The translations under genes were made by a program, and so were the position numbers. The notes below the pieces were generated by a model. That model was not told the DNA's origin. It did no database searches and saw nothing but the letters and a program-made list of their open reading frames with translations. Shown in pieces: positions 4,580 to 13,575 of a DNA stretch of 39,748 nt; the stretch's first letter is position 1; each line of letters starts with the position of its first letter. Source of the stretch: a virus (lineage: Duplodnaviria > Heunggongvirae > Uroviricota > Caudoviricetes); IMG/VR virus record IMGVR_UViG_2563366998_000008, one strand, 5' to 3'.

Positions 4580-4858
4580 ATGGCACGCAACGCAAAATAT
4601 TACAATCATGATAATTCGACCGTTCTTGCCCACACGCACGAGCGGTATTCTCATGCATTTAAGTCAGACTGGTACCAGCATCCCCCATGCACTGAAGAAC
4701 AGGCCGAGTGGCTAATTCAGTGCTACCGCAGACACGGATACGAGATTAAGAAAGCCCTCAGCCTCGATTATCGTCACTGGATAATCTCCGTCAGGCTCCC
4801 TTACTCCGAACGGCCACCGCGTCCGTCCCGCACATTCCAGCAACGCATCTGGAGGTAA
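4580..4858 (+). CDS. hypothetical phage protein (92 aa)
   Basis: ATG 4580 with GGAG upstream; stop immediately precedes the next GTG start. Confidence 0.5.
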   Translation: MARNAKYYNHDNSTVLAHTHERYSHAFKSDWYQHPPCTEEQAEWLIQCYRRHGYEIKKALSLDYRHWIISVRLPYSERPPRPSRTFQQRIWR

Positions 4859-9632: not shown

Positions 9633-9874
9633 TACTACGTCATCGTACTGGCCCGGCATTCCAGGCCATAAAAGACGGTCTGGCAGTGGGACTAAATGCA
9701 CTGACGCTGACGGATATTACCAAAAATGCAACGTATGGCGTTGAGATAGAAAGTCTGGTGCTGGAGATAAATGCACCGGCATCATCATAAAAAGTGAGCC
9801 AGTCAAATGGAAGGTATCGTTAAACTCACCGGTAGTGTCAGTGGGTCGTCTGAGACGCCTGCATGAGTTATCAG

Positions 9875-9905
9875 AGCCATCAGTACTTAACTGGTGGCTT
9901 TTTTA
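9875..9905 (+). terminator. rho-independent terminator-like hairpin upstream of the holin gene
   Basis: 9-bp stem (AGCCATCAG / CTGGTGGCT, one G-U) followed by a T-run. Confidence 0.4.
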
Positions 9906-9939
9906 TTGTTGTCAGCTTCCGGATAACGGGAGACGGGGT

Positions 9940-10155
9940 ATGTACCAGATGGAAAAAATCACAACAGGTGTGTCATACACCACGTCAGCGGTGGGAACGG
10001 GCTACTGGTTCCTGCAGTTGCTGGACAGGGTTTCCCCGTCTCAGTGGGCGGCAATAGGCGTGCTGGGGAGTCTGCTGTTTGGGCTGCTGACATATCTGAC
10101 TAACCTGTATTTCAAAATCAAAGAGGACCGGCGTAAGGCGGCGCGGGGAGAGTAA
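9940..10155 (+). CDS. S: class II holin, phage-21 S-type pinholin
   Basis: Dual-start MYQM...; translation closely resembles S21 as recalled (...[22 protein letters not shown]...[21 protein letters not shown]). Confidence 0.85.
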
Positions 10156-10156
10156 A

Positions 10157-11050
10157 GTGATGAATAAAAAATATGAACTGGTTGTTAAGGGGATAAATAA
10201 TTACGGGGATAAGGTTACTGTTACTGTGAAGTCGGAAGGTGACGGGCAAGCGTCGCTGTTGTTGCCAGATGTGGCGATTAGTCTTGACCGTACTGAAGGT
10301 GCCACGCTGGAGTTTTACGAAGCTGAGGCGAAAAAGCAGGCGAAGCAGTTTTTCATGGATGTTGCTGCCGGGTTATGTGAATGGAACGAACCGTTGCCGG
10401 AAAAGCGCCCCGTAATTTTAGAGGCGCAGGATGTGTTGATAACCTACAAAGGAAAGCTACCGGGAAGAATTACTTGTTCTCTGAAGATGCCGCCGTCAAC
10501 ACTGCGGTCAGAAAAAGATGATGTTGAATCACGTATTGAAAAACTGGAGAGCTACGTCGTTGAGCTGAATAAGAAATGGTCGATATTGGTGCCTTCTGGC
10601 GATGAAAAGCAGTTTGCTGCGTTTGACGATTATTGTCGGAAAGTGATGAGCAGAAATCTCGCAGAGTGTTTCAGTATTCATAATGATAATTTCAGTGACC
10701 CGGAATGGGAGTGTAACCGGCCATCCTTTGTTGTATCCGGTGATGCTGGGAAAATAACCATCTCAGAAAATGGGAAAGTAACACCTCCATCGCACCAGCA
10801 CAGTGAGGAGCTCATTGAATTTGCCATTGATTACCTGAAGAACAATAAAAAGCAGGGGCTGATGAAGCGCGTTGGCCGTTGCATGGGATATCTTCAGGTA
10901 GCCGCTGAGATTGAAGCGCTGGCCAGTGGTGCTGATAAGGATGCAATTGTGCGGGAGGCTCTTCTTCGTGATTTTAATACTCCACCCTTTAAAAAAGGGC
11001 CGGCTTACTGGCTTCATCCGGGGCTGACTTATCTTAAAGTGCGTATTTAG
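10157..11050 (+). CDS. hypothetical 297-aa protein inserted between holin and endolysin
   Basis: GTG 10157 / ATG 10160 directly after the holin stop; long clean ORF; no domain recognised; visibly more AT-rich than the structural genes. Confidence 0.6.
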   Translation: MMNKKYELVVKGINNYGDKVTVTVKSEGDGQASLLLPDVAISLDRTEGATLEFYEAEAKKQAKQFFMDVAAGLCEWNEPLPEKRPVILEAQDVLITYKGKLPGRITCSLKMPPSTLRSEKDDVESRIEKLESYVVELNKKWSILVPSGDEKQFAAFDDYCRKVMSRNLAECFSIHNDNFSDPEWECNRPSFVVSGDAGKITISENGKVTPPSHQHSEELIEFAIDYLKNNKKQGLMKRVGRCMGYLQVAAEIEALASGADKDAIVREALLRDFNTPPFKKGPAYWLHPGLTYLKVRI

Positions 11051-11086
11051 TGGGCCAGGGACAGCGGCTGAATATTTAATATATCC

Positions 11087-11620
11087 ATGAACACCAAAAT
11101 CAAATACGGCCTGTCGGCTGCCGTTCTGGCGCTGATTGCCGCTGGTGCGCCTGCGCCTGACATTCTCGACCAGTTTCTGGATGAAAAGGAAGGCAACCAC
11201 ACCACGGCATACCGTGATGGTGCAGGTATCTGGACCATCTGCCGTGGTGCCATCATGGTGGATGGCAAACCTGTCGTTCCGGGCATGAAGTTGTCGAAGG
11301 AAAAATGCGACCAGGTTAACGCCATTGAGCGTGATAAAGCGCTGGCGTGGGTGGAGAAAAACATCAGAGTGCCGCTGACCGAACCCCAGAAAGCGGGGAT
11401 CGCGTCATTCTGTCCGTACAACATTGGTCCCGGTAAGTGTTTCCCGTCGACGTTTTACAGACGAATTAATGCTGGTGATCGAAAAGGTGCCTGCGAAGCG
11501 ATTCGCTGGTGGATTAAGGACGGTGGCAGAGACTGCCGTATTCGTTCAAACAACTGTTACGGTCAGGTATCCCGTCGTGACCAGGAGAGCGCGCTGGCGT
11601 GCTGGGGTATCGACAGATAA
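11087..11620 (+). CDS. R: SAR endolysin (phage-21 R-type lysozyme)
   Basis: N-terminal Gly/Ala-rich signal-anchor-release segment (LSAAVLALIAAGA) plus lysozyme core resembling R21. Confidence 0.85.
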   Translation: MNTKIKYGLSAAVLALIAAGAPAPDILDQFLDEKEGNHTTAYRDGAGIWTICRGAIMVDGKPVVPGMKLSKEKCDQVNAIERDKALAWVEKNIRVPLTEPQKAGIASFCPYNIGPGKCFPSTFYRRINAGDRKGACEAIRWWIKDGGRDCRIRSNNCYGQVSRRDQESALACWGIDR

Positions 11621-11776
11621 GCAGAATATTTTGCTGAAAAATGAGGAATGGCCACGCGGGCGGATAACACGAAATCCTGCGAACTGGCGAAACGTAAGTG
11701 AATAAAAGTAAAAACCCCGTTTGTTGGCACCAAGCGAGGTTTTGTGTTTCTGACCTTGAGTAAGGCAAGGGAGAAC

Positions 11777-11959
11777 ATGGCGAAGTGTAAACGAATTCTG
11801 TTGAGGTTGACTATGAAAAATGGCCTTGAACTGAAAGCGCCTGTAACTGATGACATCAGCAGAGCACTGGCTTTTGCCATTAAGTGGGTGGCGGTCGGTG
11901 TTGCTGTGTCCCCGATGCTGTATGGGCTGGCAAAACTGGTCATTGCGTTGAAATCGTGA
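11777..11959 (+). CDS. small hypothetical protein with C-terminal hydrophobic segment
   Basis: ATG 11777 after GGGAGA; 60 aa. Confidence 0.3.
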
Positions 11960-11973
11960 AGGGAGGATTAAGC

Positions 11974-12105
11974 ATGTCAGACAAACTCATAACGCTGGCG
12001 AAGATCCTCTGTGTAATTGTCGGCATTTCATTTTCACTAATGCTGGTTGCTCTTTTTCTTTCCATGGCCTGGATGATGTTGTCTTCGTCGGGGTTGCTGG
12101 GGTGA
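11974..12105 (+). CDS. small hydrophobic membrane protein (43 aa)
   Basis: ATG 11974 after GGGAGGA; single predicted transmembrane helix; stop overlaps the Rz start. Confidence 0.35.
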
Positions 12106-12575
12106 ACATAAACCGAATGCTTTCCGCGTTTATCGTTATTCTGCTGGTGGCCTGTGGTGCGCTGTGGATGGCAACAGACCATTACCGTGATAACGCGATT
12201 ACCTACAAAGCGCAGCGCGATAACAAAGCCAGTGAACTGAAGCTGGCGAACGCAACCATTACTGATATGCAGGTGCGCCAGCGCGATGTTGCTGCGCTCG
12301 ATGCAAAATACTCGAGGGAATTAGCCGATGCGAGAGCTGAAAATGAAACTCTTCGCGCTGACGTTGCCGCTGGTCGTAAGCGCCTGCGGATCAACGCCAC
12401 CTGTCCAGGCTCCGTGCGTGAAGCCCCCACCACCTCCGGCGTGGATAATGCAACCGGCCCCCAACTGGCAGACACCGTTACACGGGATTATTTCACCCTC
12501 AGAGAGCGGCTGATGACGATGCACAAGCAACTGGAAGGGGCACAGGACTATATCCGCACTCAGTGCCTGAAATAA
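12102..12575 (+). CDS. Rz: Rz i-spanin
   Basis: N-terminal TM then ...[14 protein letters not shown]...VAAGRKRL...[10 protein letters not shown]..., matching lambda Rz; start GTG 12102 or ATG 12117. Confidence 0.85.
12328..12513 (+). CDS. Rz1: Rz1 o-spanin lipoprotein, embedded in Rz in the +1 frame
   Basis: Signal peptide with lipobox ending in Cys, then proline-rich [14 protein letters not shown]..., matching lambda Rz1. Confidence 0.8.
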
Positions 12576-12885
12576 GTTTTGTTGATGCGCCGTATCGTCG
12601 CTATATTCCCTCATTAACAGAGACCGCAGCCCGACAGGGAGACTCCTCTGCGCGAGTGTGCGGGGATAATTAAAAACGATGCACACCGGGTTTTTACCGC
12701 GTTAATGATTCGCGGGTTTATCCCGGTGCGATGGTGGAAGAAACAGGAAGCTGTATTACAGAAAGTGCTACTACTGTATCCCGATGCGATGTATGTAATG
12801 TGAGTCAGATAATGGCACAGGATGTGGTGATGTGGCAGTCTGGAACACAGGATATATTGTCAGAATAAGACCCGTAGGAATAAAA

Positions 12886-13212
12886 ATGAAAAGACGCCTT
12901 TTACTACTTTTTCTGTTATCTGTCCTGGCAGTGGGATGCTCGCAGCAAAAAGCTGATGAGCCCCGGCAATTAGTGACGGTGTATCCACGATATCCGGAAT
13001 ATGCTGCAGCAAATTATATCAAGGGGCTGGTTGAGGTTAAGTTCGATATTGGTGCTGATGGGACTGTGACACGGATCGTTTTTCTCCGCTCAGAGCCTCA
13101 TAATTTGTTTCGTGATGAAGTGGTGAAGGCCATGGCGAAATGGCGATTTGAAAAGAATCGCCCCTGTCAGGGAGTGAAGAGACAATTTATCTTTACGCCG
13201 TCACGTCCTTGA
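12886..13212 (+). CDS. lipoprotein with TonB C-terminal-like domain
   Basis: Signal peptide MKRRLLLLFLLSVLAVGC (lipobox LAVGC); mature region YPRYPEYAAANYIKGLVEVKFDIGADGTVTRIVFLRSEPHNLFRDEVVKAMAKWRFE aligns by eye to the E. coli TonB C-terminal domain. Confidence 0.7.
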   Translation: MKRRLLLLFLLSVLAVGCSQQKADEPRQLVTVYPRYPEYAAANYIKGLVEVKFDIGADGTVTRIVFLRSEPHNLFRDEVVKAMAKWRFEKNRPCQGVKRQFIFTPSRP

Positions 13213-13304
13213 TGCTTCCAGGTAGAGAGGGGCTGGACGCAGGAGAAAAATGAAAGAGCCAGCGGTTATATTTTTGTCATGGCTGACGAGGAATGATGGA
13301 AGAA

Positions 13305-13327
13305 GGCGTTGTATGCCACACAACGCC
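13305..13327. terminator. hairpin between convergent genes
   Basis: GGCGTTGT / ACAACGCC stem, T-rich downstream on the + strand. Confidence 0.35.
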
Positions 13328-13575
13328 TCACTGTTCATTTCTTCTTTTTCTCTGGTGGAACCCGATGAATAAGAGTTGCACTGGTTTCCGATGAGATGGC
13401 GATATACTCGGGCAAAGTATGCTGGCAGTTTTCCAACTGGTCAAAAATACCTGCTCTCGTCTGTTGCAATGCCTGCAGCATGCGGCGGCAATGCGCCTTG
13501 CTTTTACTAACCATCTTTCCTTCCTCTATCAGTCGCTGCGTGAACTCATCATGTAATACCAGGTAAATGCGGATG

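Follow-up and report, generated by a model that had tools for sequence, protein, structure and literature searches.

Several small phage membrane proteins come close to the pair of open reading frames considered here. The lambda S105/S107 and phage 21 S68/S71 genes are dual-start holin/antiholin genes. In phage P2, LysA is a multi-TMD protein encoded between the endolysin gene K and the spanin genes lysB/lysC, and it affects lysis timing. HK97 gp15 belongs to another class, being a phage moron that encodes a small inner-membrane exclusion protein. The 'releasin' gp25 of Mu (DUF2730) is a small, membrane-tethered and mostly cytoplasmic non-holin of the lysis cluster, and its family also occurs with cytoplasmic endolysins (PMC9239132). 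In a study of E. coli O157:H7 Sakai, XECs191 was reported as a novel small gene, transcribed and translated according to RNAseq plus RIBOseq, with a translatome RPKM of 12.6 in the first listed condition; the cultures were uninduced, and a single transmembrane helix and an inner-membrane location were predicted for the product (PMC5597208).

In this study, a stretch of 39,748 nucleotides (hereafter the window; IMG/VR record IMGVR_UViG_2563366998_000008), which represents a lambdoid E. coli prophage, was analysed around the interval between its endolysin gene R and its i-spanin gene Rz. The original prediction placed two short ORFs in this interval and took them for accessory lysis regulators or membrane-acting exclusion factors. 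We tentatively favor the first of these readings, which we hold at somewhat less than an even chance: ORF1 and ORF2 would be optional accessory inner-membrane lysis proteins, expressed late in the Q-dependent late (lysis) operon.

The lysis cassette of the window

The lysis region was read from the sequence, the ORF list and profile matches. A phage-21-type class II holin (pinholin) gene is located at 9940-10155 on the + strand (ORF translation; PGAP, 'class II holin family protein') and has a dual start of its own (MYQMEK...); we take this holin to be S21-like from its resemblance to the S21 sequence. An ORF of 297 aa, DUF1327/YdfR-like, is inserted between S and R (10157-11050). The SAR endolysin gene R (11087-11620, + strand; PGAP, 'lysozyme'), recognized from its ORF and sequence, has the N-terminal hydrophobic segment LSAAVLALIAAGAPAP and is the upstream neighbour of the module. 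A spacer of 156 nt separates R from ORF1, which is followed by ORF2 and then by Rz (12102-12575, + strand), which has a GTG start and matches Pfam Phage_lysis at 2e-47. Rz1 is embedded within Rz (12328-12513), and a TonB_C lipoprotein gene lies at 12886-13212. A simple consensus scan, which weak promoters may escape, found no σ70-like promoter on the + strand in the region 9700-13400.

The sequence and the ORF list agreed with the original prediction in the sizes (60 aa and 43 aa) and coordinates of the two ORFs. The predicted ribosome-binding sites were found as well, GGGAG before ORF1 and AGGGAGGA before ORF2, and so were the hydrophobic segments, with one strong stretch in each ORF by hydropathy and long helices by AlphaFold2. 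The adjacency of R and Rz in 21-type cassettes, given in the original prediction for phage 21, holds for DLP12; there, essD, rrrD and rzpD follow one another directly, with a 4-nt overlap between the last two, and the small ORFs are absent.

ORF1 and ORF2 are protein-coding genes

Since small ORFs arise by chance, conservation is what counts. The coding tests were performed on approximately 290 related loci gathered from phage records, IMG/VR contigs and assemblies. The pooled Nei-Gojobori dN/dS of ORF1 was 0.15-0.18 in frame, compared with approximately 0.9-1.0 and 4.7-6.8 off frame. That of ORF2 was 0.43 in frame, and 0.88 and 1.09 off frame. As controls, R and Rz from the same loci gave 0.10 and 0.50, respectively. 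When ORF2 was divided into halves, the N-terminal half gave 0.31 and the C-terminal half 0.53. The selection on ORF2 is thus moderate, and the Rz initiation region may constrain its 3' end. A 33-aa ORF in another frame within ORF1 (11850-11951) was rejected as a further gene; it had no coding signal, with an off-frame dN/dS of around 1 or higher.

All 31 distinct ORF2 alleles were exactly 132 nt in length, free of frameshifts and premature stops, and each kept the hydrophobic helix. Alleles with ATA as codon 1 of ORF2 start instead from an ATG located five codons upstream (MEWWLMISDKL...). Both ORFs had good Shine-Dalgarno (SD) sequences in every architecture. In the window, the GGGAG of ORF1 lies 3-4 nt upstream of ATG 11777, and the AGGGAGGA of ORF2 (11960-11967, + strand) lies 6 nt before its ATG; the latter motif was kept in 194 loci, and other architectures had other SD variants. 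Furthermore, XECs191 proved to be an ORF2 homologue, in a 49-aa MMGWLMISDKLI... form (supplement of PMC5597208).

The in-frame purifying selection, the retention of the frame, the SD sequences and the RIBOseq listing of XECs191 establish ORF1 and ORF2 as real protein-coding genes. The same evidence, together with the remote ORF1 homologues in other genera, contradicts the idea that they are chance ORFs in a non-coding spacer, an idea suggested by their short length, by the lack of Pfam and NCBIfam families and by the missing annotation of ORF2 in most phage records; we regard it as hardly credible.

Both genes had been catalogued before. In PGAP, ORF1 is WP_001446668.1 and ORF2 is WP_001280932.1, each a 'hypothetical protein'. 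ORF1 matched PHROG 1115 at 3.7e-42, PHROG 4493 at 1.9e-28 and PHROG 3246 at 4.3e-19, and ORF2 matched PHROG 4906 at 2.1e-23, all of them of 'unknown function'. Searches of Pfam, NCBIfam and PADLOC (the last at E ≤ 1) gave no informative match for either ORF, and Rfam gave none for the interval at E ≤ 1. The bare observation of the genes is not new, given their catalogue entries as hypothetical proteins and the report of translation for one of them. A published function was found in the literature for neither, and their peptide strings did not occur in the main texts of papers; only the supplement of PMC5597208 lists the ORF2 homologue. In the available parts of that study (Hücker et al. 2017), XECs191 is catalogued without lysis-cassette context, Rz coupling or function. 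Publications dealing with spanins or with the lysis cassettes of Stx phages, as far as their available parts go, do not mention ORF1 or ORF2.

ORF1 and its two candidate starts

ORF1 (11777-11959, + strand; ATG 11777, stop 11957-11959) encodes 60 aa in its long form. A basic N-terminal extension comes first, the conserved segment MKNGLE..AP..IS.A.AFAIK is next, and the transmembrane helix is C-terminal. The best 19-aa hydrophobic window covers residues 38-56 (mean KD 1.88), and the AlphaFold2 model has a low-confidence helix at residues 2-15, joined by a linker to a confident one at residues 23-59. The N-flank of the long form has a net charge of +5, and the predicted topology is N-in, tail-anchored.

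Family comparison drew attention to an internal SD-like GAGG (11803-11806, + strand) followed by an invariant in-frame ATG (11813-11815). ATG 11813, 12 codons after ATG 11777, is a putative second start, and the candidate products are thus of 60 aa and 48 aa, the short form being without the four basic residues of the long one. In 29/29 unique upstream regions, the invariant Met was preceded by a basic in-frame extension of the form (N/K)Y(K/R)(K/R)(I/F)(L/F)xR(L/F)(T/S), which had its own start codon and SD-like sequence in the copies inspected. Since this extension is spelled by different codons (YKR, YRK, YRR), it appears to be conserved as protein. An SD-like motif was located 4-14 nt before the internal ATG in 29/29 unique loci, compared with 13% of all ATGs there, although these loci are mutually related and the counts are descriptive rather than independent. 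In 27 loci, the Arg three codons before the Met was AGG or AGA, and GAGG or GAGA results from this; in the two 'VEAN'-type loci GGAG serves instead; the share of AGR among the Arg codons of the window's long ORFs is 14%. The dual-start signature, namely two starts whose products differ in N-terminal positive charge, was seen at the sequence level in ORF1 and in 29/29 family loci, and was absent from ORF2.

Like the dual-start holin/antiholin genes, ORF1 encodes a small lysis-cassette membrane protein with two in-frame candidate starts, of which the longer product has the extra N-terminal positive charge, and its expression would likewise be late. It differs from them in having a single C-terminal transmembrane helix, a distance of 12 codons between the starts and a charge difference of +4. 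Moreover, ORF1 lies downstream of the endolysin gene and next to the spanin gene, alongside a bona fide holin. Each of the two ORFs has at least one transmembrane domain and a lysis-cassette location, as holins do (hydropathy, AlphaFold2, R-Rz position). The charged C-terminal cytoplasmic domain of holins is absent: the ORF1 family ends 2-5 residues past the helix (ALKS/AIRWW), and the C-terminus of ORF2 is the uncharged SSSGLLG. No holin family profile in Pfam or NCBIfam matched either ORF. Because the charged C-terminal domain is missing and a true holin is present, we did not file ORF1 as a holin.

The other described systems resemble ORF1 less closely in build. The gene for LysA is also a non-essential membrane protein gene between endolysin and spanin genes with a timing role proposed, but LysA is much larger, with approximately four transmembrane domains. 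In Mu gp25, the transmembrane domain is N-terminal and the cytoplasmic domain is longer, whereas the helix of ORF1 is C-terminal; besides, a pinholin is encoded in the window itself, the ORF1 family is linked most tightly to the i-spanin and not to SAR endolysins, and DUF2730 in Pfam matched neither ORF1 nor ORF2. The hallmarks of spanins were absent from both ORFs, with no soluble domain of more than ~30 aa and no lipobox, and Rz and Rz1 are separately present.

Hairpin upstream of ORF1

A terminator-like hairpin, composed of AAAACCCCG, a 15-nt loop and CGAGGTTTT, lies upstream of ORF1 at 11711-11743 on the + strand, flanked by an A-tract and a T-rich tail that reaches ~11752. The pattern scan called it terminator-like at 11718-11736. 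This copy is weak (-12 to -13 kcal/mol, with one C:A mismatch and z = -0.84 against shuffles); it is not significantly stable when taken alone, and only the comparison with relatives reveals it as a conserved element. A homologous hairpin (A-tract, GC stem, T-tract) preceded 21/21 of the diverse ORF1-family copies examined, in every genomic context, at 48-92 nt before the internal ATG. The best 50-nt windows in 20 relatives ranged from -12.8 to -30 kcal/mol, mostly -15 or lower, and RNAalifold gave 10 pairs for the family hairpin, 6 of them with compensatory double changes. The copy in the window is a degraded one. A terminator-like hairpin precedes the ORF1-family gene even inside baseplate operons.

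Since the hairpin precedes diverse copies in all contexts, the mobile unit comprises the hairpin plus the ORF1-family gene. A consensus scan and the inspection of the upstream regions of relatives revealed no σ70 promoter between the hairpin and ORF1. The hairpin could be an attenuator that lowers the expression of the downstream genes, with the Q-modified polymerase reading through it in lambdoids. It could also be an RNA-stability element, or an insulator for an undetected promoter.

ORF2 and its junction with Rz

ORF2 (11974-12105, + strand; ATG 11974, stop 12103-12105) encodes a 43-aa membrane protein with a single helix. The best 19-aa hydrophobic window covers residues 11-29 (mean KD 2.89) within a transmembrane segment of approximately residues 11-36, and AlphaFold2 modelled a single helix at residues 2-38 (pLDDT 87.5). 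We considered whether ORF2 is a duplicate of the N-terminal transmembrane domain of Rz and found no support for it, as the shuffle z was 0-3.6 and inconsistent between Rz types; a relationship to ORF1 had no support either (shuffle z ~1).

As predicted, the end of ORF2 overlaps the start of Rz: the GTG start at 12102 and the TGA stop at 12103-12105 share the GTGA at 12102-12105. The ...GGGGTGA junction was nearly invariant among alleles. PGAP places the Rz start at a downstream ATG (12117 in the window). In several alleles this ATG is ATT (VSINRIISAF...), and the overlapping GTG is the sole start that keeps the Rz transmembrane domain. Since these alleles leave only the ORF2-overlapping GTG, Rz is probably made by termination-reinitiation after ORF2. 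The ORF2/Rz overlap mirrors the R/Rz overlap of cassettes without an insert.

Coupling from R to Rz occurs in lambda. ORF2 might thus be mainly a translational-coupling leader whose peptide is incidental, a GTGA-ending ORF having taken over R-to-Rz coupling after the insertion of cargo. The GTGA overlap itself, the alleles without any other Rz start and the direct overlap of R by Rz in DLP12 agree with such a leader, and the restriction of ORF2 matches to Escherichia and Shigella records does so too. The pattern of constraint can be read in two ways, for the C-terminal half is looser (0.53) while the 3' end is nearly invariant, as a leader would have it, but the selection is frame-specific and strongest in the N-terminal half (0.31, versus 0.88-1.09 for the whole ORF off frame). 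In addition, a leader does not account for the invariant length of 43 codons or for the hydrophobic helix in 31/31 alleles. ORF2 is also retained beside a different Rz allele, whose start has an SD of its own and lies 8-9 nt downstream, and in loci where it is separated from Rz by a 28-aa ORF together with a methyltransferase gene. Given the frame-specific selection on the peptide and the retention of ORF2 beside an own-SD Rz or apart from Rz, coupling alone is insufficient to explain ORF2, and we consider the leader explanation improbable.

The R-Rz interval is a mosaic hot spot

The layouts between R and Rz were compared over 96 distinct intervals. Besides the order of the window itself (R, ORF1, ORF2, Rz), we observed R, antirepressor, a 37-45-aa 'altORF1', ORF2 and Rz, the usual order in Stx phages; R, a Bro-N/P22_AR_N-like gene, ORF2 (49 aa) and Rz, and the same set with a 28-aa transmembrane ORF and a DNA methyltransferase gene in addition; R, ORF1, a 28-aa ORF and Rz; and R, ORF2 and Rz. 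In Salmonella, the layout was R, an optional antirepressor, ORF1 and Rz, and ORF2 was absent. The 28-aa ORF and altORF1 appear to be related to ORF1 (shuffle z 4.5-6.1). The interval is thus a mosaic hot spot.

ORF1 DNA was found in 1598 of the 5426 complete E. coli genomes, at 1913 places, and ORF1 occurs also in E. marmotae and Salmonella. ORF2 DNA was found in 1750 of the same 5426 genomes (32%), at 4657 places, with up to 11 per genome. By tblastn, ORF2 was present in 276 phage records, always at full length. Most of these belong to Stx-converting phages (among them the EDL933 Stx phage, phi24B, Min27 and Stx2 phage 86), usually with ORF2 left unannotated. The module of ORF1 and ORF2 is also carried by PhiR5_2/PhiR12 (PV340546, PV340549). 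No ORF2 match lay outside Escherichia and Shigella records. In E. coli genomes, 18326 places belong to the Rz family, and the ORF2 places amount to about a quarter as many. Together with DLP12, which is without both ORFs, this proportion shows that ORF1 and ORF2 are dispensable for a working cassette.

Breadth and genomic position of the ORF1 family

An ORF1-family profile was searched against 1.8 billion representative proteins at a threshold of E ≤ 0.001. The search yielded 23 ORF1 relatives of 20-87 aa and one protein of 4413 aa. The informative relatives share MKNGLE(V/L)DAP(V)T.E(I)S.A.AFAI(K/R), and the hydrophobic helix at the C-terminal side of it ends in ...ALKS, ...AIRWW or similar. 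Family members are typically ~40-65 aa, their N-terminal segment being short and their transmembrane helix C-terminal, and they span Escherichia, Salmonella, Yersinia and metagenomic phages. A one-genome-per-species scan gave no ORF1 relatives.

The contigs of the relatives and two further IMG/VR scans provided 34 distinct ORF1-family loci, a sample that is biased by retrieval and includes close relatives, and 23 of the 34 had a lysis-cassette setting. The endolysins upstream belong to five unrelated types (SAR lysozymes, GH19, GH108+PG_binding_3, the 'NNPGNIR' type and the PG_binding_1 type). Downstream, the ORF1-family gene ends 1-11 nt before the gene for an Rz-type (Phage_lysis), a DUF2514-type or a 199-aa TM protein. 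P2-like phages have it between the endolysin gene and those of small lipoproteins, and in a Yersinia prophage remnant without holin and endolysin, an ORF1-like gene still abuts Rz/Rz1. The tightest linkage of the family is to the i-spanin. The endolysin-X-i-spanin slot of the ORF1 family is kept even where cassettes have no holin, endolysin or spanin type in common. The family is widespread and enriched at the endolysin/i-spanin junction.

In one lineage, the ORF1 relative overlaps the start of a lysozyme gene whose product has a hydrophobic N-terminal segment, which is the position of a holin, and other holin candidates are absent nearby. This lineage, the size of the proteins, their single hydrophobic helix and the membrane targeting would suit auxiliary holins that depolarize the membrane, or hydrophobic toxins like those of type I toxin-antitoxin systems. 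However, a recognisable holin is already present in most cassettes, the window included, and the holin-like charged C-terminal domain is lacking. For a type I system, an antisense RNA is the hallmark, but no promoter-like site on the - strand overlaps 11777-12105 and no RNA family in Rfam matched at E ≤ 1. Toxins or auxiliary holins are thus very improbable.

The remaining 11 of the 34 loci lie outside lysis cassettes, six in myovirus baseplate clusters, one between tail-tube and chaperone genes, three after tail-fibre genes and one after a capsid gene, and all of these positions fall within late operons. The capsid-distal locus carries an array of small transmembrane ORFs.

These positions bear on the main rival of the lysis reading, namely that ORF1 and ORF2 are moron-type cargo, which serves the lysogen or the infected cell (for example by superinfection exclusion or envelope modification) and simply occupies a site of the late operon where recombination is frequent. 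The relatives in baseplate, tail-tube, tail-fibre and capsid clusters fit the membrane-acting exclusion factors of the original prediction. Cargo is also known from the interval itself, which elsewhere carries antirepressor, Bro-N/P22_AR_N-like and DNA methyltransferase genes, and both ORFs are optional. As in morons, presence is patchy and the contexts are several (DLP12 without both ORFs; multiple architectures). The mosaic distribution and the encoding of small membrane proteins in late operons are features shared with morons of the HK97 gp15 type. On the other hand, a moron is marked by a promoter upstream and a terminator downstream; here, the hairpin is upstream and the next gene follows 1-15 nt after each ORF. 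The terminator-like hairpin could insulate a self-promoted unit, but the scan of the + strand gave no σ70-like promoter upstream, and the next late gene directly follows the ORF1-family gene. Nor does gp15-type cargo have the conserved i-spanin-adjacent position of ORF1/ORF2: the endolysin-X-i-spanin slot recurs with unrelated partners and is far commoner than any other context of the ORF1 family. PADLOC gave no matches. The XECs191 reads came from uninduced cultures, as expected of a gene serving the lysogen, but the low RIBOseq signal is compatible with spontaneous induction. Taken together, the cargo explanation appears rather unlikely, and of the two functions first proposed, lysis is the better supported.

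Proposed role in lysis

The proposal of accessory lysis regulators is favored by the gene neighbourhood, namely the endolysin-X-i-spanin slot, the coupling of ORF2 to Rz and the absence of a + strand promoter. As accessory lysis proteins, ORF1 and ORF2 would be expressed late, within the Q-dependent late (lysis) operon, a setting for which the close gene spacing and the overlap of the ORF2 stop with the Rz start speak as well. In the inner membrane, both proteins would tune the timing or efficiency of the sequence of pinholin, SAR endolysin and spanin, and they would not be essential effectors of lysis. The two ORF1 isoforms would differ by the +4 N-terminal extension, which may fix or invert the topology, and the isoform pair would be comparable to the dual-start holin/antiholin pairs. 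ORF2 would additionally set the translation of Rz. A generic membrane step is likelier than a specific enzyme partner, since the ORF1 family holds its position beside holins, endolysins and spanins that are unrelated between cassettes. Against the lysis-accessory reading stand the optional nature of ORF1 and ORF2 and the 11/34 ORF1-family loci outside lysis cassettes, as well as the upstream terminator-like hairpin, which could mean an insulated, self-promoted moron.

A wider form of the proposal is more doubtful. In this form, the ORF1 family would be an unrecognised, widespread component of the lysis cassettes of Gram-negative phages, a two-isoform tail-anchored micro-protein whose forms have opposite charge bias and possibly opposite topology. 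It would regulate membrane steps, be it holin triggering, SAR-endolysin release or spanin activation, always with an upstream attenuator hairpin that sets the expression of this protein and of the spanins, and ORF2 would be an Escherichia-specific partner co-translated with Rz.

We found no prior description of the family-wide endolysin/i-spanin position, the dual start and the co-travelling hairpin. The same is true for the GTGA coupling of ORF2 and Rz and for the presence of ORF2 in Stx phages. The original prediction did not have the breadth of the ORF1 family, its dual start, its hairpin, or the occurrence of ORF2 in Stx phages and its earlier listing as translated. Taken with the position, the dual start, the hairpin, the coupling and the Stx-phage presence, the genes are a concrete candidate for a further component of the lysis cassette that can be tested. 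For such tests, the ORF1 family is a simple system of ~50-60 aa, two starts and one helix.

Lysis timing determines the burst size and the release of Shiga toxin from induced cells. Since it does so, an extra conserved membrane protein in the cassette would be relevant to pathogenesis. A lysis role, if true, would add to the holin-endolysin-spanin scheme, which releasins and disruptins have recently joined. Should ORF1 and ORF2 prove to be exclusion morons, they would even so rank with the commonest prophage membrane proteins of E. coli that have yet to be characterised.

Insertion sites and flanks of the lysis cassette

As in the interval between the endolysin gene R and Rz, additional coding sequence was found between the pinholin gene S and R. 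An ORF of 297 aa (10157-11050), whose start lies immediately 3' of the S stop, carries an N-terminal DUF1327 (YdfR-family) domain and, along its whole length, matches PHROG 1085, a group of unknown function. In the PGAP annotation of an identical genome, only the first third of this ORF is covered, as an incomplete YdfR-family pseudogene. The presence of the 297-aa ORF between S and R therefore marks S|R as a second insertion hot spot of the cassette, besides R|Rz.

The R-Rz hot spot itself carries further cargo. In some Stx-type prophages, a DNA-methyltransferase-like gene, encoding either 255 aa or 311 aa, is located between ORF2 and Rz, and in the 255-aa version the 28-aa transmembrane ORF sits between ORF2 and this gene. 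The R-Rz intervals with such methyltransferase-like cargo reach about 1.9 kb (loci L189-L191 and L215) or about 2.1 kb (L206).

On the holin side, a strong terminator-like hairpin (9873-9901; 12 pairs and a T-run) is present just 5' of the holin gene, a location consistent with a tR'-type terminator in the late-promoter leader. Downstream of Rz/Rz1, the window encodes a lipoprotein (12886-13212; lipobox LAVGC) whose C-terminal domain is of the TonB type and which PGAP names 'TonB family protein'; in lambda, this place is occupied by bor.

ORF1 family and the overlapping ORF

In ORF1-family copies of the Salmonella type, the gene is preceded by a mini-ORF of 8 codons, MCREACSL*, which has a strong SD (L160, 2966-3010; the same sequence in L313, L321, and L322). 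Its terminal GTGA overlaps the GTG at which the long isoform starts, and this overlap would be a second termination-reinitiation junction. In the window, the mini-ORF stretch is deleted and the ORF1 long form starts with ATG.

A 33-aa ORF (11850-11951) shares sequence with ORF1 in a different reading frame, and most related loci have it too. The dN/dS analysis revealed no coding signal for it, the off-frame value being about 1 or higher, and the 33-aa ORF most likely exists as a side effect of the conservation of ORF1.

ORF1-family genes also occurred outside lysis cassettes. In a JGI metagenome contig (3300007140; L293, 2500-3410), five small transmembrane ORFs form an array immediately 3' of a lambda-type major capsid gene. 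The array includes an ORF1-family member and its paralogue, a holin-like protein with a highly charged C-terminus, and a 32-aa protein (...WRFLLLWL...AVRWW) similar to altORF1, the ORF preceding ORF2 in Stx phages. In myovirus contigs (L299-L302 and L330-L334), the insertion site of ORF1-family genes lies within baseplate clusters, with the central-spike/hub gene on one side and the gp25-like sheath-initiator gene on the other. The upstream hairpin of the ORF1 family accompanied each baseplate copy examined (L299, L300, and L330); in a baseplate cluster, a terminator-like element is oddly placed, as is a membrane protein.

Start codon of Rz

PGAP places the Rz start of the window at the ATG at 12117. 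Since ATT replaces this ATG in several Rz alleles of other prophages, the allele comparison points to the GTG at 12102, which overlaps the ORF2 stop, as the real Rz start. Many of the database Rz proteins of the window type may carry an annotation that is five residues short.
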